Source of the DNA: Naegleria gruberi
Taxonomy: Eukaryota
Strand: one strand, 5' to 3'
Assembly: GCA_000004985.1 (NCBI GenBank)
Contig: GG738847.1
DNA: 64,000 nt
A program made the translations under genes and the position numbers. The first letter of the stretch is position 1. Each line of letters begins with the position of its first letter. The notes beneath the pieces were generated by a model. It ran no database searches, had not been told where the DNA came from, and saw nothing but the letters and a program-made list of their open reading frames with translations. Of this stretch, positions 1,120-62,969 are shown in pieces.

Positions 1120-1124
1120 AGAAA

Positions 1125-1577
1125 TTAAAATCTTTCTTCCAAATATTCTCTTTCAGCTCTGGATGGAGAATAAGTGAAAATATCCTCATTTGGTATTGAT
1201 TTCTTGGTTGTTTTTGATAACTTTTCAATACGTTTTTTGATATCAGGTTTTTCTCTTCTTAAAATTACTAAACTTTGAATTGGATGAGAGAGTAAAATAT
1301 TTGTCATGAATGATAACAAATTTTGGTCCATTTGTCCAATAATATTTTCAGTAAAACTTCTTGGATTTAATTTAACAGAAATTGTATTCTTGTCATTATC
1401 ATTAATTGTTGTAGTAGTTAATTCTTCATAATTTTTAGGACCAATAATTGACCGTATTGTATCTGTATTAAATAATAAAATAATTTTTGTGGCATTACTG
1501 GCTTGATGTTTTCGGGATGAATAAATTACATTCCACACAAATTTAAAAATGTTGATAAATGATTGAATTAAAGTCAT
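1125..1577 (-). CDS. hypothetical 150-aa protein
   Basis: A 453-nt stop-free ORF in AT-rich DNA is very unlikely by chance. A true ATG sits at 1577 in an aaaaaaaATG context. No family recognised. Codon usage is more AT-biased than its neighbours. Confidence 0.6.
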   Translation of the reverse strand: MTLIQSFINIFKFVWNVIYSSRKHQASNATKIILLFNTDTIRSIIGPKNYEELTTTTINDNDKNTISVKLNPRSFTENIIGQMDQNLLSFMTNILLSHPIQSLVILRREKPDIKKRIEKLSKTTKKSIPNEDIFTYSPSRAEREYLEERF

Positions 1578-1582
1578 TTTTT

Positions 1583-4500
1583 TTATTGTTTCTTGAGATC
1601 ACTCTTAATCTTGTCAACAAGGGCTGCCATGGCATCTTCTCCTGAACCAACTGCTGAGATCTTAGCACCTAGACCTTTTGCTGGTTGTTTCTTCTTTTTT
1701 GCTTGTTCTCTCTTTATCTTGTCTAATGACCTCTTAATAATTTCATTAAATAAAAACATGGATCCAAAGAAGTCTTTTGTGTCAACTTTTGCAATATCCT
1801 TATCCTTGAATGAAAGATATTTAAGTAAACTAGTAAAGTTTGTCTTGAATTGTTCAAATCTCTTTTCAATAGTATCACATTCTTGTTTGGCTTTCTTGAA
1901 GAAGGAAGACATTTTCTTTAAAAAGATATCTTCAGCTTCCACTTTTCCTTGAACAGTTTTGATCTTCTTCTTAAAGTCATTCAGATTGTTGACAAGAGAT
2001 TCAACTTGATTTTTCATATCATCCAACGAAAATTCTTTAGACCTAGAAAAAACTTCGAATTCTGTTGTTATTTCTTCAAACTCTGCATCTTTTGGAAGAA
2101 CTTTTTGAACACAAAAATCTGCAAGGTTTCCTTTTGCGTTATCCTTTGTGTCTTCGAGCTTTGATAAGATATCTAATTGAAAACCTTCTGCTTGACCTTT
2201 CTTTGTGCCACCGTTTAAATAGTTACCAACAGCTAGAACAATACCTAAAATGTTCTTGAAATGAGTTGATTCTTTTAGAATTTTAACAGAATTTTCAAAT
2301 GTTTCTAATGGTTTTCCAACAATAAGCAACCCTGTTTCAAATTGTAAAGTATACGTCCAACATCTAATTCTTGTAGCAAATTCTGGTGTGTTAATAATAC
2401 AATACAAATACAACTCTGGATCGGAATATTCCTTCAAGTCTTTTGTTTTGTGAACTTCCTTGAATCCATTGATGGTATCAGCATCAGGCATATTTCCTAG
2501 TAATAATTCTACGTGTTCATAATTTAAAATTGTGCTGTCCAAGTTTAAAACACCTTGCTCAATATGAGAAACTTTTGGCAGTTTTTTCAACATGATAGAG
2601 ATGTTATTAAATGTCTTTTGATCCAACAATGGGACTGATTTTGGTTCTTCCTTTTTTTCTTTCTTTTCTGGAGCTTTTCTTTCCTTCTTTGAAAACATTT
2701 CTTCAAATTCATCAGCATCCAATTCCTGTTCTACCACATTTGTCCAAATTGTATTTTGACTTATGAGGTTAGTTTCCTTATTATTTCACTACTTACATTG
2801 TTGTTGCCTTATCCCATGAAAACATTTTCATCTTTTTCTTTGGCTTAATAACTGGTTTGACAGATGTTGCAGCAGCAGCTCCACATGAAGGGAATCCAGG
2901 TACTTGAGGTACACCAAATCCTGGTGGCATTGGCATTCCACCCATTCCTGGAGGAGGAACAGGCACACCAAATCCAGGAGGCATTGGAACACCCATACCA
3001 GGAGGAGGAGGGACGCCACCCATACCAGGAGGCATTGGAATTCCTGAACTAGGAGGAGGTGGTACACCAACCATACCAGGAGGCATTGGGATAGTAGATC
3101 CAGGAGGAGGAGGAACACTACCCATTATAGGAGGAGGAGGAACACCCATACCAGGAGGCATTGGAATTGAGCTACCAGGAGGAGGAGGAACACCAAAACC
3201 AGGAGGCACTGGAATTACCGATCCTGGTGGAGGAGACATTACTCATTCCTGGAGGCATAGGGATAGTAGATCCAGGAGGAGGAGGAACAGAGCTCATACC
3301 AGGAGGCATTGGTATCGAGCTACCAGGTGGAGGAACACCACCAAAACCGGGTGGGGGAGGTATTACTGAACCAGAAGGAGGAGGAACACCACCAAAACCA
3401 GGAGGCATTGGAATTCCCGATCCTGGTGGAGGAGGAACATTACTCATTCCTGGAGGCATAGGGATATCAGATACTGGTGGAGGAGGAACATTACCGACAG
3501 GTGGAGGAACAGATGTTGGCGGTACTGGAATAGTTGGATTTGACACAGGAGGGACTGATGTTGAAGGAGTTAGAGTTGTCGGTGGAGTATTGTTACTTGA
3601 CTGTGAGACTTGGTCGGCCAACTTTTCTGCATTTTGAATTTGCTGCTCGATTTCCTTCTGAAGATTCAAGTTATTGCTGGTGGCCTCTTTCAAGAGTCTA
3701 TTTGCGTTAGCCACTTCTTTTTTGAGGTTTTCGAGTTGCCTTGTTGCATAGTCAGCTTCTGCAAAACTTCTTGTTCTTTCATTATCTAATTCTAAAGAAA
3801 GTTCATCAATCTTTCTCTTTAAAACTTCAATTTCTTCATCTCTTGGGTCATCTTCTGGAGGCAGAGGCAATTCATCCTCTGAATCACTAGCAAAAAGCTC
3901 ATCAATTTCATCTTTCTTCACTTCTGGTTGTGGAATAATGTCCGCAAAGTTTGGATCCTTTAAAAATTGTTTGGCTAGCTCCTTTCTTGCTTGTTGAAGC
4001 AATTGAAATTGTTCAGTTAATTCAAGATTCTTTCTTTGGAACCTGCTAAGATCAATTACTTTATCTGGGGAGAATTCTAAAACAGCATCAGTATCAAGTC
4101 TTTGAGAAGTACACATTCTATCAGTAAATCCACATTTCATTGAAAAAATGTTTACAGTCTCGTAGCATTTTTGAAGCTCTTGTTTGAGAACTCTAATTGT
4201 GGATTGCTGTCTTTGGAATGCAAATAGTTTTTCTTGTGTTTGTTCATATTTACAAGAAACCTTGTCTAATTCAATCTTCATTTTCTCGCAAACATACCAT
4301 GATCTTGGTATTTCAATCTTCGAGATCTTTTGGAAGATTGATAATTGTTCTTTAACACCAGGAAATTCTGACCTATTGGCAAAATCCAATGTACTTTCCA
4401 GGTCAGCCTTTCTCCACATGAAGAGTAATTTTCTCTTCTTGTCCTCTGAAGACTTTGAAAGTATAACGTTAAGTAATGTCAAGCAATTTACTTGAACAAG

Positions 4501-4992
4501 CAAATCTCCACTCTTCAAAATATCCATTATGTTTTGGAAAGGTTGTTGTTTGCATTTAGTTGCAAGATCTTTTGCTGATCTTTTCACTAATTTAATACCA
4601 TTATCCAAATAACTACAGAAAACAATCATCAATTCTAAAGCATTTTTGTAAATCTGAACATTTTGATATCCACTTGAGGTATCAGTCAAGTTATAAATTT
4701 CTGAAACAGTAGAAGGAGATTGAGAAATTACATCCATGGCAGATACGTAAACTAGGGCACTTCTCAATGCGGCTAAACCATAACCTTGGAGGTTACCTTT
4801 CAGATGTGTAACTTCTTTTGCTAAAATGGCAATACCATTCATAGAAATAAATTCTTCAGAAAAAGTGGTATCTTGCAATGTTTCCTTCAATTGAAACAAT
4901 ATTTTACCCTTTTCAACTCTATCATCCGAGTCAAGAATATTGATATAGTCCCTAGATTTTAATTCAGGTCTTAGTTTTAAATAAGCAGACAT
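1583..4992 (-). CDS. diaphanous-type formin (GBD/FH3 - coiled coil - FH1 - FH2), gene model with one 37-nt intron and a frame discontinuity inside FH1
   Basis: N-terminal ORF 3172..4992 begins MSAYLK and carries armadillo-like GBD/FH3, a coiled coil and an FH1 with tandem (P)PPGMGGVPPPP repeats. ORF 2793..3239 continues FH1 in another frame and ends KKKMKMFSWDKATTM, the start of FH2. A GTAAGT...CTAAC..AAG intron at 2760..2796 splices in frame onto ORF 1583..2737: ...KATT|IQNTIWTNVVEQELDADEFEEMF... with GNYLNGG, a typical FH2 motif. Exons are roughly 1583..2759 and 2797..4992, with a frame shift near 3172-3239. Confidence 0.8.
2880..3560. repeat. tandem DNA repeats encoding FH1 poly-proline units (about 48-nt period, ccaggaggcattgg...ggaggaggaacacc...)
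   Basis: Near-identical units are visible by eye. The reverse-strand Gly-rich antisense ORFs in the track (3161..3637, 2864..3052) are artefacts of this repeat. Confidence 0.8.
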
Positions 4993-5898: not shown

Positions 5899-7659
5899 AT
5901 GTCTTGGAGTGATATGGGTTTACCTCTCTCTTTCGGAGGAAAGAGAACACAATCCGGTACTGCAAAAAAATCAAACAATTCATCATCGGAAACAAAAAGT
6001 TTAATCACAATATCTAATACTAACGATTTAAATGGAAAAGCAATTTCAAAGAATTTAAAATCAAATCAAGAGGAAAAGAAGCCTATGGTTGTTAGTCAAG
6101 TTAGACATTTCGAAGATTTGGAAGAGGATACAAGTGATAATGATGATTTTTCTTCTGGTAATGATTTTGAAAAGATTCCACTGTCACAAACTGCAAAGAT
6201 GAAAGGACATAGAAAAGCAGTAACTGCTATAGCAATTGATACAAGTGGATCTAGATTAATTTCTGGTTCAAGTGATTATACACTCAAATTTTGGGACTTC
6301 CAAGGTATGGATGAATCACTTCAGTCGTACAAGGAAATTGATGAAATAACTGAGAGTGCTTCTTATGCGATTAAGCATTTATCATTTAGTAATAGTGGTG
6401 ACAAATTCATATTATCAGACAATTCGTTACAAGCAATTTTATATGATAGAGATGGTGGTCAACTAGGTAAATTCAAAAAGGGTGATACTTATATTGTGGA
6501 CATGACAAAAACCAATGGACATACAGCTTCTTGGACAGGTGTTCAGTGGAATCCTGATCAATCCAATAGACATGTCATTTCTAGTTCTATGGATACCACT
6601 GTCAGAGTGTGGGATATGGAAACTTTCACAACAAAGCAAATTACTGTATTCAAAGCAAGAAATAGTAAGGGACTCAAAACCCCTGTAACTTCATGTTGTT
6701 ACAGCAATGATGGAAAATTAATTACTGCTGGATGCTTGGATGGATCAATACAAATTTGGAAAAATAATGGCAACCCAAACAAGTGTGACATGAGTTTTAG
6801 AGAAAAGGATGAAAGAGGATCTAGAATAACTAGTATTGTTTTCCATAATGATGATCAAACACTTGTAACAAGAGATGAGGACAATTTGAAAATATTTGAT
6901 ATCAGAAACTTTAATTCTCCCATTTCAGTTCTTGATAATCTGCCAAATCTTTTGGAAAATTCAAATTGTGTCTTTTCTCCTCTCAACGATATTGTTGTCA
7001 CAGTTGTGAGTAGCATATCACCACAGGATAAGGGATCCATTGTATTTTATGATTGGAAGAATGATAAAGTTGTAGATACTGTACATATGAATGATGGAAT
7101 TAGTCCAGTGCAAGTGAGATGGCATCCAATTATTAATCAAATATTTGTTGCTGGCACAGATAGTTCTATCACTGGATTTTATGATAAAGAAGTGAGCTTG
7201 AGAGGATTGGTTACAAGTACATCAAAAACATTCAAGAAGAAGAATATTGATCAAGCCGAAATGGTACAGCCACAAATTATTGCACCTTATGCACTTTCAC
7301 AGAATAAGGAACCAAAAAAGAAGGGAAGAAAAGATCCTGTTAGCTCTCAAAAACCAAAAGATCCACCTCCAAAAGGTCCTGGATTTGGTGGTAGAATTAA
7401 TGACAGCTTTACTCATTTCTTAATGAAAGGAATGGGTGCCATTAATCAATTTAATGAACATGAAAATGCTCGTGATGCCATTCTGAAACATGCAGCAGAG
7501 GCAGAGAAAAATCCACTATTTATTTCACCAGCATACTCCAAAACTCAACCAAATGCAATCTTTGATTATGGTGAAGATGACGAAAGTGAAGAAGATCAAG
7601 AGCAACCACAAGATGAAAATGATCCAGAAAGTAGATTCAAAAAGAGAAAACTAGATTAA
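5899..7659 (+). CDS. WD40-repeat protein, WDR70 family
   Basis: ATG in an aaaaaaaATG context. N-terminus GLPLSFGGKR.., WD repeats (LISGSSDYTLKFWDF..) and a basic C-terminus ending KKRKLD fit the WDR70 architecture. Confidence 0.7.
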   Translation: MSWSDMGLPLSFGGKRTQSGTAKKSNNSSSETKSLITISNTNDLNGKAISKNLKSNQEEKKPMVVSQVRHFEDLEEDTSDNDDFSSGNDFEKIPLSQTAKMKGHRKAVTAIAIDTSGSRLISGSSDYTLKFWDFQGMDESLQSYKEIDEITESASYAIKHLSFSNSGDKFILSDNSLQAILYDRDGGQLGKFKKGDTYIVDMTKTNGHTASWTGVQWNPDQSNRHVISSSMDTTVRVWDMETFTTKQITVFKARNSKGLKTPVTSCCYSNDGKLITAGCLDGSIQIWKNNGNPNKCDMSFREKDERGSRITSIVFHNDDQTLVTRDEDNLKIFDIRNFNSPISVLDNLPNLLENSNCVFSPLNDIVVTVVSSISPQDKGSIVFYDWKNDKVVDTVHMNDGISPVQVRWHPIINQIFVAGTDSSITGFYDKEVSLRGLVTSTSKTFKKKNIDQAEMVQPQIIAPYALSQNKEPKKKGRKDPVSSQKPKDPPPKGPGFGGRINDSFTHFLMKGMGAINQFNEHENARDAILKHAAEAEKNPLFISPAYSKTQPNAIFDYGEDDESEEDQEQPQDENDPESRFKKRKLD

Positions 7660-13534: not shown

Positions 13535-13607
13535 TCCCCCTTAGCTCAGTCGGTAGAGCGTCAGACTGTTAATCTGCAGGTCGGTGGTTCGAGCCCACCA
13601 GGGGGAG
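13535..13607 (+). tRNA. tRNA-Asn (anticodon GUU)
   Basis: 7-bp acceptor stem TCCCCCT/AGGGGGA, D-arm GCTCAGTCGGTAGAGC, anticodon loop CTGTTAA, T-arm GGTGGTTCGAGCCCACC, discriminator G. A T-run (GTTTTTGT) follows downstream. Confidence 0.9.
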
Positions 13608-28353: not shown

Positions 28354-28471
28354 GGCTACGGCCATATCACGATGAATGCACCTCATCCCGTCCGATTTGA
28401 GAAGTTAAGCATCGTCGAGCCACATCAGTACTGAGGTTGGAGACAACTTGGGAACCTGTGGTGCTGTAGTC
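28354..28471 (+). rRNA. 5S ribosomal RNA (copy 1) with a downstream T6 terminator
   Basis: GGCTACGGCCATATCACG...CATCCCGTCCGATTTGAGAAGTTAAGC...GTACTGAGG...GGGAACCTGTGGTGCTGTAGTC followed by TTTTTT. The 3' end can pair with the 5' end (helix I). Upstream at 28290-28350 is a degenerate partial copy of the 5S 5' end (cggttatatcacgatgaa). Confidence 0.9.
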
Positions 28472-28854
28472 TTTTTTGAATCTGTGAATACTGTAACAAT
28501 ATTTGAAGACTCAAACTCGAAATTTGAAGGTTTATTGATCAACCACAAGTTTCTATTTCTAAATAGATAAAATTCAAAGGTGATATATAGATGGTCACGT
28601 AGCAAGCTTTTCTAAACAACAAACTTACTGAACCAACAATCAATAGATTCGTTGCCTTCACTGTTCATACAGTCAAAGACTGTAGCGGGATAGTCGCCAT
28701 ATTCCTGGCAGGCTTCCCGTCTTAATTGTTTTACAAATGAAATAACAAACTTAATTTTATGGAGACTCACACTTTATTCTAATGTTAAATAATAATTAAA
28801 AGCAAAATTGTTTCAAAAATTTAGCCTTTTTAAAGAAATTGATTTCTGTTTCAA

Positions 28855-31711: not shown

Positions 31712-31784
31712 TGCCGACACCAGGGATCGAACCAGGGACCTTAAGATCTTCAGTCTTACGCTCTCCCAACTGAGCTATGTCGGC
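31712..31784 (-). tRNA. tRNA-Phe (anticodon GAA)
   Basis: The reverse complement reads GCCGACATAGCTCAGTTGGGAGAGCGTAAGACTGAAGATCTTAAGGTCCCTGGTTCGATCCCTGGTGTCGGCA, nearly identical to eukaryotic tRNA-Phe. A T-run follows the 3' end. Track ORF 31650..31835 overlapping it is spurious. Confidence 0.95.
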
Positions 31785-33086: not shown

Positions 33087-33204
33087 GGCTACGGCCATAT
33101 CACGATTCATGCACCTCATCCCGTCCGATTTGAGAAGTTAAGCATCGTCGAGCCACATCAGTACTGAGGTTGGAGACAACTTGGGAACCTGTGGTGCTGT
33201 AGTC
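33087..33204 (+). rRNA. 5S ribosomal RNA (copy 2) with a downstream T5 terminator
   Basis: Differs from copy 1 only at about 2 positions (gattcat versus gatgaat). Shares the upstream motif gtattaaggaag with the copy-1 locus. Confidence 0.9.
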
Positions 33205-33265
33205 TTTTTACAAAATTTGAAAAACAAGGTAAATTAATTTGGTAGTTTTGTATCTTATGTTTATT

Positions 33266-58119: not shown

Positions 58120-58914
58120 CTAGTAAAATTCAGCCATCTCTCCCATCTCTTCTTCCTCAGACATTCCCAATGAAATGCAATACCCTTTTGAAATGTAGTC
58201 TTTGAATGTGCTAATATTTTCCACATTGTAAACCTTCTTTCCACACACTCTACATGACCGTTCATCTCCATATCCATCCAAGCTATTAAATTTCAATGGA
58301 CACTTGTAGATATATTCACAATTTTCAATAAAGCCGTCATCACTCTTGAAATCATAGATTGGATCTCCTTCTTTCCTTCTGAGTATTGGAAGGAAGTTGG
58401 CTCCATTAATTTTGATGTGAGCAACTCTTCTCCTTAATACATGCATCCAATTCTTAATATTCAATGCCTTTTCAAATCTTGGGAAATAGAAACAAACTAA
58501 TGGTTTCCAAACTTGAATTTGAACTAGATCAAAGTCAATTGATTCCTCATCCTTTTGGTATTTCTTTTCCTGTGTTTTTAATTCGTTTTGTTTTGCATGT
58601 TCTCCAAAATGTGTTTGAATTTTACTCTTAATTACTGTATGGTTTGGAAAATTTGAAATTTCCTGATTGAACAGTAATTTCAAGTATCTTGAATTTGACT
58701 CGGAAAACCTTGCCAGCTCTCCTCCTTGACAATAGGTTGCAATATGTACAATCAATTCATCAGGAATGAGATTGAAATTACAATTCTTCTTTTTCTTTGG
58801 TACTGTTGTTTTCATTGATGCACTGGTGTTCGTTTTCTTTTTATCGACAGCCACAACAGCCAGATCATCTTCGGCTGTTGCTTTGGAAAGGTTGGAAAGT
58901 TTAAGAGTTGGCAT
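58120..58914 (-). CDS. F-box domain protein with a C-terminal Cys-rich (zinc-ribbon-like) region
   Basis: Real start MPTLKLS at 58914 (aaaaaaaaATG). F-box LIPDELIVHIATYC..L. C-terminus ..CPLKFNSLDGYGDERSCRVCGKK. Confidence 0.6.
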   Translation of the reverse strand: MPTLKLSNLSKATAEDDLAVVAVDKKKTNTSASMKTTVPKKKKNCNFNLIPDELIVHIATYCQGGELARFSESNSRYLKLLFNQEISNFPNHTVIKSKIQTHFGEHAKQNELKTQEKKYQKDEESIDFDLVQIQVWKPLVCFYFPRFEKALNIKNWMHVLRRRVAHIKINGANFLPILRRKEGDPIYDFKSDDGFIENCEYIYKCPLKFNSLDGYGDERSCRVCGKKVYNVENISTFKDYISKGYCISLGMSEEEEMGEMAEFY

Positions 58915-59013
58915 TTTTTTTGAAATTGAAGTGAACTTTTCCAAATACATTACAACACTGAGATTTTCAAAATAGTTTAATATCATTTAAGAAAATTAAC
59001 ATTTATTTACAAA

Positions 59014-62000
59014 TTAAAGTTCAGAATCATCATCACCAATCTTTTTCCTCACTGTTGACTTCTTTAACGAGACACCACCACCAAGAATGTTTGTACCAGC
59101 TTTTGGATCGTCCTTCTTGGCAGTTGATGCTGTGAGACGACTTGTTGTACTTGCATTTTTGAGATCTTGTTTAAGTTTTTCCTTCTTAAGCTTTTCTTCT
59201 TCTGCCTTCTTTTTCTTTTCGTCGGCCTTTTGTTGTTGAATATTCTTGTCGGCAGCTTGTTTAAATTGTTGAACAAAGGCATCAATCATTTGGAAGAATT
59301 TGTCTGGTTCTTTCATAAGATCGTCCTTAGTTTCATTGTACAATTCTGCGAGCTCTGTTAATTGATTCTTCATAGCTTCCATATCTTCCTTGATCTTGTT
59401 AATGGTATTGTCAACCTTCTCACAGAATGGTTGCATTTTTTCAACAAATTTGTCTCCATCAAGTTGTTCTTCAATGGCTTCTCTAATTTGAGTTTGTAAA
59501 ATGTTTTGTCCTTTTTTAAGTTCTTCCAAATCATCTTCCAAAGAGGAAATGTTCACTCTGGTGGCAGCTTGAACGTGTTCTAATTCTGTATCAAAACCAG
59601 CAACTTCTGGTTCGTTGTCTTGGACAAACTTGACAATATATTGGAGGAGAGAACTCTTACCGTCACCAGTCTTAGTATCATTCAACTTGGCAAGTGATTT
59701 GAGTTTAAAACCATAACTGATCTTATTCTTTTGTTTACCATTCAAAAAGTTACCAATTGTAAGAATAATACCCAACAATCTGATGAAATTCTTAGAGTTT
59801 TGCATTTCTTTACAGGCTAATGTAAGATTTTGAATATCAGGTCTAATTTTACCACTGATATCAGGGAATTTAAATTTAAATTCCCACGCATCAAGTCTTC
59901 CTTTGAGATTTGGAATTCCATCCATGACTTTGAAGAATTTATCAGGTTCTGCTAATTCATCCATTGGTCCATCATATGTATTGACAGTATCAATTTCTTC
60001 TCTCTCAGGAGCAATTTGCTTAATTGTACCAACATTATCAGAAGTAACAACAGCTTCATCGAGAGCAATAATAGCTTTCTTCAATGATTCATAACTTGTA
60101 CCTCTCAATGAACCTAATTGAAGGGAAACAGCATAACTACGTTTTGCATCCAACATTGATTTAACTTCCTTCTTCTTTTCTGTTGGCTTAACTTCTTTGT
60201 TTGGATCTTCCTTTTTCTTTGTAGAGAAACATGATGTCAAATGATCCAAATCTATTTCCTCAATAATGGAATTTGTCTTATTTGCAATACCTTTTGTCAT
60301 AAATACGGTATTGGTAAGTGTTGTCTTATTAATTTGGTCAAAGTGAACATTTCTGGTTGCTTCTTTTGGAGCTCTATCTGGAAGAACAGGTAATCCACCA
60401 CCAACAGCAGCACCTCTTCCAAAACCTCCTGGAACCATTGGTACACCTCTTCCAAAACCTGGTGGCATAGGAACACCCATACCAGGTGGCATTGGTACAC
60501 CTCCCATTCCTGGAGGCATTGGAACACCACCACCAGGAGGAGGAGGCACACCACCCATACCAGGAGGAGGAGGCACGCCTCCCATACCAGGTGGAGGATT
60601 GGAACACCTCCCATTCCTGGAGGCATTGGAATACCTGATCCTAAAGGAGGAGGAACACCGCCCATACCAGGTGGAGGAGGAACACCAAAACCTGGAGGAG
60701 GAGGAATACCACTATCCATTCCTGGAGGCATTGGAATACCTGATCCTGGAGGTGGTGGAATACCACCAAAACCTGGAGGAGGAGGAACAAATCCCATATC
60801 ACCACCAGGTGGAGGAGGAACAAATCCTGAGCCACCAGGAGGTGGAGGAACAAATCCAGTAGATCCAGGAGGTGGAGGCACGCCAAAATCACCACCAGGA
60901 GGTGGAGGCACAAATCCTGAGCTACCAGGTGGAAGTGGTACTGAACCACCAGGTGGAGGAGGAACGAATCCTGTCGAACCAGGTGGAGGAGGAACAGATC
61001 CAGTACTAGCTACTGTGCTAGTTGGAGGTACCTTAATAGGATTACTTTTGATAGATGAAATTTCTTTTTCGATGGCCGCAATAGTCTCCTTTAGCTTGGT
61101 TTCGTTTTCTTGATGCTTTTTGAGATCTGCTTGTAACTTTTCAATCTTTGATTTTCCTTCCTTTTCAACCTTTTCGGTTTCGTCTGTCACCTCCTTAACT
61201 TGATTTTTAACATCATCGTCTTGATCGCTTGAGTCTAATTTCTTTGTCCAAGTTTCCTTTTCCTCATGGAGCTTAATTTTTGATGCCACAGATTCAGAAA
61301 GTTCCTTACTGATTGTCTCTATTTCAACCTTCAGGTCTTCAATCTTCTTCTTGTTATCTTCACATTCTTTTTGAATATTTTGTTTCTCCGATTCGAGTTT
61401 TTGAACAAGTTCATTAATAATTTGCTCATTTTGTTGTCTTTCGTACTCAATTTTGTGTAACTTTTCATTCTGTTCTTGTTTAAATTTGTATTGAGAGTCT
61501 TCTAAATCAATAATTTGACTTTGGTTCAATCTGACTTGTTCTTCCAACTTGATTTCCAAATTAGTCCAATATTCTACATTTCCTGTTTCTCTGGACTGCT
61601 TTAAACTTCTCTTAACAAGTGCTAACATATTTTTCCAAGCTTCAAGAACGGTTTCTCTGTCCAAATCTCCATCTTTCATCTTTAAAACAATGTTAAGTAA
61701 TCTTTGAAGGATGTTAAGCATACTGGTCATGGATGCTTCGTTTAACATCAAGTTCAAAAGTTTTACAATTTCAGTTGGGTCACTTAAATCTTTAAGGACA
61801 GCGTGAGCATCTCCAAGATCACTGATTTTGTCTTCGAATCTTTCAATTTCTTTACTCAGATCCATTAATGTTTCTTCATTTTCATTACCTCCATAAGAAT
61901 TGGCAAGTTCATTCTTCAATTCATCTACTAACTCAACCATACCTAAATTTCTCATTTCCTTCTTGATGAGAGATTTACTACCTTCATCAGGTGCATTTGT

Positions 62001-62969
62001 CAAAATTGCATTCACTAAAATCATGACAGCCAATTTGTAATCCAAATCTCTTGTTTCTTGAACTCTTTGAACAATATCAAAGAATCTTCTCTTTTCTCTT
62101 TTAACCAATTTATAGTGATTAAAAGCATTCATAACAAGGGAGAAACCTTGATATGACCATCCACAAAGTAATGCTAATATTCTCAGACATTGACTTGCTG
62201 TGTTAACATTGTAAGTATCAAGAATTAAAGCCAAATTTTTAACAGCTTCAGTTTCGGATAAAAATTCATCTGCACCGATATTGGTATGTACAAGTGCACG
62301 TAAAGAGCTCACACACAAAGCTTGTTTTTGCAATTCTTCTTGATCACGTTTCTTTCCCAATACATTTGTCAATGCTAAACATTCTCCCAAAGCTCTAATA
62401 CCTCTTTCCATAATAAATTGGTTGACCCAACGTGTTGGAGCTGTTCTAATAAGAACATGAATAGTTTCCAAAATTTGTAAATCATAACCTCTTTGTTCCC
62501 ATAAGGCTAACATTTCACCAACACCTTGTTCAGTTGTTTCTTGGTCATCAATATCACGTTTGTTTTGTTTATATCTTTTCAATTCTCTAAATTTTGAAAT
62601 GAGTGGCTTGTTAGCAGATTCGTACTCTCTAACTTCTTCCGAAACACCAATATCAATCAACATTTCAATAAATTGTTCATTGATATCATCAGGAGAAATA
62701 TTGGAAGGAATTTCAGAGTGATGATCTAATGTTGAATCACCAGAATGATCCGTAAATGTACTAGCTGCTGTTGTATAACTTGTTGAGTCATCACCAAGAG
62801 TTGCCGTGTTGATACTCTGTTCTACTCTCTTCTTGTATTCATCCTTCTTCTTCTTTCTGTCCTTTTTGATTTTTTTTTTCAATTGATCTTTTACAGTTTT
62901 GGCGGTTTGATTGTTTTGATTTTCAATACTGTTTGTATCCACAGAAGAACCTATTAGTTTCTTTAACAT
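59014..62969 (-). CDS. diaphanous-type formin (GBD/FH3 - coiled coil - FH1 - FH2 - basic DAD-like tail) with a frame discontinuity inside the FH1 repeats near 60590-60600
   Basis: ORF 60297..62969 has GBD/FH3 armadillo, a long coiled coil, FH1 (..GFVPPPPGG.. and GIPMPPGMGGVP..) and ends in frame-garbled sequence. ORF 59014..60585 begins MGGVPPPPGMGG.. and carries a complete FH2 (..LLGIILTIGNFLNGK..) plus a Lys-rich C-terminus. The two ORFs overlap in different frames. Confidence 0.8.
60390..61010. repeat. tandem DNA repeats encoding FH1 poly-proline units (second formin)
   Basis: Same ccaggtggaggaggaacacc...cataccagg unit family as at 2880..3560. The antisense Gly/Glu-rich track ORFs (60599..60862, 60641..60949) are artefacts. 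Confidence 0.8.

Follow-up and report, generated by a model that had tools for sequence, protein, structure and literature searches.

Within a 64,000-nucleotide (nt) stretch of the Naegleria gruberi NEG-M nuclear genome (contig GG738847.1 of assembly GCA_000004985.1; the whole stretch is referred to here as the window), a gene of 150 codons is enclosed by two close neighbours: a formin gene on the same strand, whose stop codon lies 5 nt upstream of its start, and a convergent gene for the tRNA 2-thiouridylase MnmA/MTU1, whose stop codon lies 5 nt from its own. Judged from its conservation in other species, the open reading frame (ORF) at 1125-1577 is an independent, functional protein-coding gene of a small orphan family. 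The spacers around it were lost by deletion, and outside Naegleria the gene stands apart from formin. It is probably expressed from a separate mRNA with a short leader that starts within the 3' coding region of formin, in a set of overlapping transcription units whose boundaries we infer from the arrangement of the genes.

The distances to the formin stop and to the convergent MnmA stop had been given in a preliminary description made from the sequence letters, and its coordinates proved exact. It had further argued that such spacers leave too little room for a 3' untranslated region (UTR), a poly(A) signal and a promoter; we agree, as 5 nt cannot hold them. Both 5-nt spacers are also present in a second N. 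gruberi isolate (L002), an independently assembled metagenome contig with 98.4% nucleotide identity over 3225 nt. The junctions are therefore not an assembly artefact.

Coding status and family of the small gene

The view that the small ORF is protein-like is borne out by chance expectation and by conservation at the protein level. Given the local base composition, a run of 150 open codons would arise by chance with a probability of ~8e-7, and none of 30 shuffled windows yielded an ATG-initiated ORF of at least 150 amino acids (aa). A search of 5.8 billion protein clusters returned four relatives, at 99%, 61%, 55% and 56% identity, the last being the N. lovaniensis hypothetical protein C9374_006951 (E = 3.4e-39). 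Compared with the orthologues of four other Naegleria lineages, the protein is 55-64% identical. The alignment of the five sequences has a mean column identity of 69%, with invariant blocks that include HPIQSLVILRREKPD and SRAERExLEERF. Across this and two further alignments of the family, T30, N37, L53, I66, L95, Y136, A141, E142, L146 and E147 are among the invariant columns. The ratio of nonsynonymous to synonymous substitution rates (dN/dS) is 0.13-0.21 by the Nei-Gojobori method, with dS saturated, including in the comparison with the lineage L004. These alignments carry a clear signature of purifying selection at the protein level.

The family is small. A profile search of 1.84 billion representatives yielded no more than 14 proteins, and 12 of these reach E <= 1e-10. 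Most are 124-250 aa long and two are shorter fragments, while the weakest long match (P0016) is a repeat protein aligned only over a short stretch. The Acrasis kona protein AKO1_000476 (P0007), with 33% identity, was found at E = 9.1e-24, or 3.0e-48 with a wider profile. Named members come from Naegleria and Acrasis kona, and the others from metagenomes or read assemblies. The N. gruberi protein resembles them over its full length, falls within their size range (~125-250 aa) and carries the family motifs TKxIxxxNTD, NLLSFxxNxLLSH and C-terminal SRAERxxLEERF. The shared architecture begins with a hydrophobic or amphipathic helix of variable sequence, followed by the strand TKVIxxLNTD and a variable acidic loop. 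It continues with two strands, the helix NLLSFxxNxLLSH, another strand, an acidic linker and a C-terminal helix ending in LEERF. Pfam has no match for the small protein or for the 14 family members, a PDB profile search with the small protein gave only noise, and no usable fold was obtained for it. What is defined is thus a small protein family without a recognisable domain, from heteroloboseans and related metagenomic protists. It may be speculated that the N-terminal helix serves membrane or organelle targeting.

The exact 150-aa product was not found in a collection of 15 billion proteins. The same collection contains exact matches to the NEG-M neighbours EFC49547.1 (a WD40 protein, 5899-7659) and EFC49554.1 (27158-28264). 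Furthermore, no N. gruberi entry occurs among the homologues retrieved from the 5.8 billion clusters. With both absent, the small gene is apparently missing from the NEG-M reference protein set; the probable cause is that spacers of 5 nt are not accepted by gene finders. In L009, an N. fowleri/lovaniensis-like contig close to N. lovaniensis, the gene has been called only as an 80-aa fragment. A conserved gene can thus be added to the NEG-M set, and the same blind spot may hide further small genes.

Spacer loss and gene spacing

The order of the three genes, with the small gene downstream of formin and convergent to MnmA, is constant within Naegleria; the distances between them are not. In N. 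lovaniensis (L001) the formin stop and the small-gene ATG are 80 nt apart and the stops of the small gene and MnmA 202 nt apart. C9374_006951 has the family, length class, motifs and flanking genes of the N. gruberi gene, and differs from it in these ordinary spacers. The corresponding distances in L009 are 130 and 242 nt. In L004 the formin stop lies 7 nt from the ATG (TAA-ACAAAAA-ATG), and MnmA was not found within 231 nt. A further lineage, L003, has only 3 nt between the small-gene and MnmA stops, and the 41 nt available upstream contain no recognisable formin end.

Identity in the formin FH2 domain is 0.67-0.68 between the window and either N. lovaniensis or L009, 0.61 between the window and L004, and 0.59 between L004 and the former two; N. 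lovaniensis and L009 are 91% identical. L004, with the lowest identities, is thus the most divergent lineage. As formin and the small gene nevertheless abut in it, the abutment is either old or has arisen twice.

For each of the three genes, the end falls on the same conserved residues across species. Formin ends in ...DLK(K/R)Q (...DLKSKQ in L009), with its stop at the same aligned point in every Naegleria whose formin end was compared, and the C-terminus ...AMAALVDKIKSDLKKQ* is kept in L002, L004, N. lovaniensis and L009. In every species compared, the small protein ends in ...LEERF* and MnmA ends 0-4 residues from ...GGGIY, its ...VGGGIY motif being that of N. lovaniensis, L003 and L009. 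Therefore, the spacers were lost by deletion and not by extension of the ORFs. On these comparisons, the tight packing is local and lineage-specific.

What was retained upstream of the small gene? The spacers of N. lovaniensis and L009 can be aligned only in the CAAAAAATG block at the start codon. The A-run of this block is still present in N. gruberi, which makes it the sole recognisably conserved upstream feature to have been kept there; from this comparison, nothing else in the upstream spacer looks to be required. Runs of A are typical of start codons in the window. AAAAA directly precedes the ATG in 10 of 30 genes, against 1.1% of all ATGs, and A occupies positions -1 to -4 in 19-25 of the 30 (63-83%). 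A third of the genes have A5-A9 before the ATG (for example those at 5899, 9230, 15639, 16409, 27158, 34750, 41556, 42168 and 42335). The formin TAA, AAAAA and ATG, TAAAAAAAATG, thus read as the consensus N. gruberi start context. This context could also aid start-codon calling in N. gruberi annotation.

Outside Naegleria the small gene has other neighbours. Its Acrasis kona orthologue AKO1_000476, of the same family and length class and with the same motifs, lies at 6001-6456 of the locus L005, 2.5 kb from its nearest upstream neighbour and with the end of a convergent GTPase gene 20 nt downstream of it. In L006 (gene at 5958-6597) a divergent neighbour is 42 nt off and a convergent Snf7 gene 89 nt off. 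No formin stands beside the small gene in L005, L006 or L007. With such different surroundings, the gene is autonomous and its linkage to formin is specific to Naegleria. Tight packing is also seen at the distant orthologues in L005 and L006, and short spacers may be general in heteroloboseans.

The window itself is AT-rich (~33% GC). In a rough map of its ORFs, the two 5-nt gaps are the smallest of ~40 inter-ORF gaps, which are typically 120-600 nt. The next-smallest gaps between distinct ORFs are 27 nt (with an uncertain start), 57 nt and 93 nt. Divergent genes are separated by 164-166 nt from ATG to ATG and convergent ones by 121-125 nt from stop to stop; tandem gaps measure 57, 93, 139 and 152-163 nt. 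Short spacers are thus general here, which as a rule leaves room only for UTRs and core promoters that are very short or that overlap. For the same reason the case is less exceptional than the general eukaryotic rule would suggest: the locus with 5 nt on either side is the extreme end of a continuum. The N. gruberi genome as a whole reportedly comprises ~41 Mb, of which roughly 58% is coding.

Table 1. Features of the formin/small gene/MnmA locus (window positions).
Feature	Position	Strand	Remarks
MnmA/MTU1 tRNA 2-thiouridylase, C-terminal 371 codons	4..1119	+	TGA 1117-1119; gene truncated by the start of the window
Spacer between MnmA stop and small-gene stop (convergent), 5 nt	1120..1124	.	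AGAAA on +; same in L002
Small gene, 150 codons	1125..1577	-	ATG 1575-1577; TAA 1125-1127
Spacer between formin TAA and small-gene ATG, 5 nt	1578..1582	-	AAAAA; reads TAAAAAAAATG with flanking codons
Formin last exon, FH2 and C-terminal tail	1583..2759	-	TAA 1583-1585; start (~2759) inferred from splice sites
Formin intron, putative, 37 nt	2760..2796	-	GTAAGT...ACTAAC...AG, read from the sequence
Formin first exon	2797..4992	-	ATG 4990-4992; FHOD-type FH3/ARM, coiled coil, FH1 proline repeats

Both neighbours are readily identified (Table 1). MnmA matches the Pfam tRNA_Me_trans families in its HUP domain (E = 4.7e-63), PRC-barrel (E = 3.7e-19) and C-terminal domain (E = 2.3e-10). The first formin exon matches FH3_FHOD1-3 (E = 2.3e-26) and ELMO_ARM (E = 1.5e-9), and the last, which ends in ...DLKKQ, matches FH2 (E = 1e-62). 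The putative intron between them is very short, with a branch-like ACTAAC 12 nt before the AG. Joining 2797 to 2759 preserves the formin frame (...KATT-I-QNTIWTNVVEQE), and the same break in the ORF occurs in L002. Relative to the near-identical L002, the window formin has a 2-nt deletion (GT--CTCC) at ~3230-3245 (~3237), in the proline-rich FH1 repeats, which breaks the frame between the ORFs 3172-4992 and 2793-3239. This may be an assembly error in the repeats, an allele or a true NEG-M frameshift.

A second formin gene occupies the minus strand at 58120-62969, with a Drf_GBD/FH3 exon at 60297-62969 and an FH2 exon at 59014-60585; 27 nt past its TAA lies the ATG of a 288-aa ORF (58120-58986). 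This ORF is one of a Naegleria family with multiple copies, of which the N. lovaniensis paralogues carry an F-box protein annotation. Its homologues cover only 62-92% of it, so that the true start, and hence the 27-nt spacing, is uncertain. On comparison, the 150-aa protein and the 288-aa ORF are unrelated. Dispersed 5S rRNA genes lie in short intergenic gaps on the plus strand at 28354-28472 and 33087-33205 (105 and 100 bits). tRNA-Asn(GTT) (13535-13607, plus strand) and tRNA-Phe(GAA) (31712-31784, minus strand) likewise occupy short gaps among protein-coding genes.

Transcription and translation of the small gene

How is a gene expressed when neither of its spacers could accommodate any plausible UTR together with a promoter or poly(A) region? 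Deletions in the N. gruberi lineage have stripped nearly all intergenic DNA from both flanks of the small gene, leaving the A-run start context upstream (TAA, AAAAA and ATG) and 5 nt downstream. In the reading favoured here, the gene would have a monocistronic mRNA of its own, with transcription beginning at most a few tens of nt before the end of the formin coding sequence. The formin transcript would terminate within the small gene, while the coding regions of the small gene and MnmA would each be entered in antisense by the 3' end of the other's transcript. The 48 nt that precede the small-gene ATG are free of upstream ATGs. Among the mechanisms proposed in the preliminary description, overlapping UTRs appear the best supported, whereas an undetected splice linking the ORFs fails for the reasons given below.

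Several observations weigh against separate, overlapping units. An exact-sequence look-up returned no assembled contig or transcript encoding the small protein; the look-up of the neighbouring WD40 protein was likewise empty. Neither a promoter nor a poly(A) motif emerged from the window: among the k-mers of 32 3' flanks, AT-richness alone was enriched, TGTAA was not, and poly(A) sites therefore cannot be placed. Many N. gruberi upstream regions are AT-rich, but the final 60 nt of formin coding sequence are not. Over the last ~27 codons of formin, synonymous codons are identical at 14 of 18 sites between the two tight-junction lineages, compared with 50% elsewhere and with 45-53% against the spacer-bearing species. 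This constraint is nominal (p = 0.02) and vanishes after window correction (permutation p = 0.77). Moreover, the N. gruberi genome overall is not extremely compact, and yet this locus is so compressed. A literature search on Naegleria dicistrons, UTR lengths and the mapping of transcription start or poly(A) sites found nothing directly relevant.

Alternatively, a single mRNA from the formin promoter may carry both ORFs, the second being reached by reinitiation 5 nt past the UAA, or may be a precursor processed into two mRNAs. This is rather unlikely. In its favour, the abutment is stable or recurrent, with 5 nt between stop and start in N. gruberi and 7 nt in L004, a deeply diverged lineage, and the junction is unstructured and A-rich, a setting permissive for retention of the 40S subunit and for scanning. 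The nominally raised synonymous identity at the formin 3' end is confined to the tight-junction lineages, but is not significant once corrected. Spacers of 80-130 nt persist in N. lovaniensis and L009, and the small gene is unlinked to formin in Acrasis, L006 and L007; both facts speak against a dicistron.

The phylogenetic position of Naegleria, in Discoba and sister to the polycistronic Euglenozoa, could also favour a shared transcript. However, according to a recent comparative preprint (10.64898/2026.07.29.740908), Heterolobosea have about two genes per same-strand run and lack a polycistronic architecture. Strand switches are frequent in the window, which lacks the long same-strand arrays of a Euglenozoan-type polycistron, and the AAAAA spacer offers neither a polypyrimidine tract nor an AG acceptor for spliced-leader trans-splicing.

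Translation of such a dicistron raises a further difficulty. Reinitiation after long ORFs is normally negligible without an element of the termination upstream ribosome-binding site (TURBS) type. Here the stop and the restart do lie within a few nt of each other (TAA-AAAAA-ATG), but the upstream ORF is far from short, at ~1,100 codons, and neither a TURBS nor a structure accompanies it. The last 120 nt of formin contain no TURBS-like TGGGA motif, no element resembling an internal ribosome entry site is present at the junction, and Rfam and tRNA scans detected no RNA element at the junctions. The 161 nt of RNA around the formin/small-gene junction fold less stably than shuffled controls (z = +1.87). 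That the small protein is made in the N. gruberi and L004 lineages from a dicistronic formin mRNA, by termination-reinitiation across UAA-A5-AUG, is accordingly quite doubtful. If true, Heterolobosea would gain their first nuclear gene pair with coupled translation, and the dosage of a putative membrane- or organelle-targeted orphan protein would be tied to formin.

Neither a silent relic nor a fusion protein is likely. The small ORF would be a relic if its expression had been lost together with the promoter and terminator space. In favour of this, the gene is absent from the NEG-M protein set, the exact-sequence look-up gave no transcript contig, and conventional signals have no room. It is nevertheless very improbable: both N. 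gruberi isolates have the ORF intact, with 1.6% nucleotide difference and a single amino-acid change between them, and the consensus A-run start context is still present. Similarly tight junctions occur in the diverged L003 and L004, where the ORFs are also intact and dN/dS is 0.13-0.21 where computable (dS is saturated for L004). If gene finders reject spacers of 5 nt, the gap in the annotation has an easy explanation.

Finally, the small ORF as a C-terminal extension of formin is scarcely tenable, although the two share a strand, are 5 nt apart and overlap in that the open frame of the small ORF reaches 7 codons further upstream than its ATG, across the last formin codons: in-frame readthrough of the stop meets a TGA two codons on, no canonical slippery heptamer for a ribosomal frameshift precedes the stop, and the frame offset is +2 in the window and +1 in L004 and L009. 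All five Naegleria have the formin stop at one aligned position, the Met and N-terminal helix of the small protein are conserved, and its homologues stand alone elsewhere, as in Acrasis; in N. lovaniensis two separate genes are annotated. Splice, frameshift and readthrough fusions are ruled out by these frame offsets, the conserved stop and Met and the stand-alone homologues, and with them the proposed cryptic splice.

Comparison with known systems

The locus offers a natural test of how little flanking sequence a gene needs, the spacers of 80-240 nt in sister species being set against the A5 context in N. gruberi. It may be useful for promoter and UTR design in Naegleria transfection, where the systems are still immature, and for finding out whether reinitiation ever takes place in this group.

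Two known arrangements resemble the formin junction. In the calicivirus VP1/VP2 pair, which depends on a TURBS, and in Drosophila dicistronic genes, a stop codon and the next AUG lie a few nt apart on one strand, as they do here. In contrast to these dicistrons, the N. gruberi junction has no TURBS or structure and follows a very long upstream ORF, and sister species do not share the juxtaposition.

A parallel to separate, overlapping transcription units is found in the compact genomes of microsporidia (Encephalitozoon, Antonospora) and in nucleomorphs. As described in PMC3629993, which cites Williams et al. 2005 (PMC1182411), transcripts in these genomes start in upstream genes or end in downstream ones. 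Their spacers are, like those of the small gene, too short for UTRs and promoters, yet every ORF has an mRNA of its own for translation. Unlike microsporidia, N. gruberi is a free-living heterolobosean amoeboflagellate; its crowded locus is a local extreme and not part of a genome-wide reduction. Most likely, the small gene is thus an instance of an ordinary phenomenon, gene crowding, and not of a new mode of expression, although at this extreme it is undescribed in N. gruberi.

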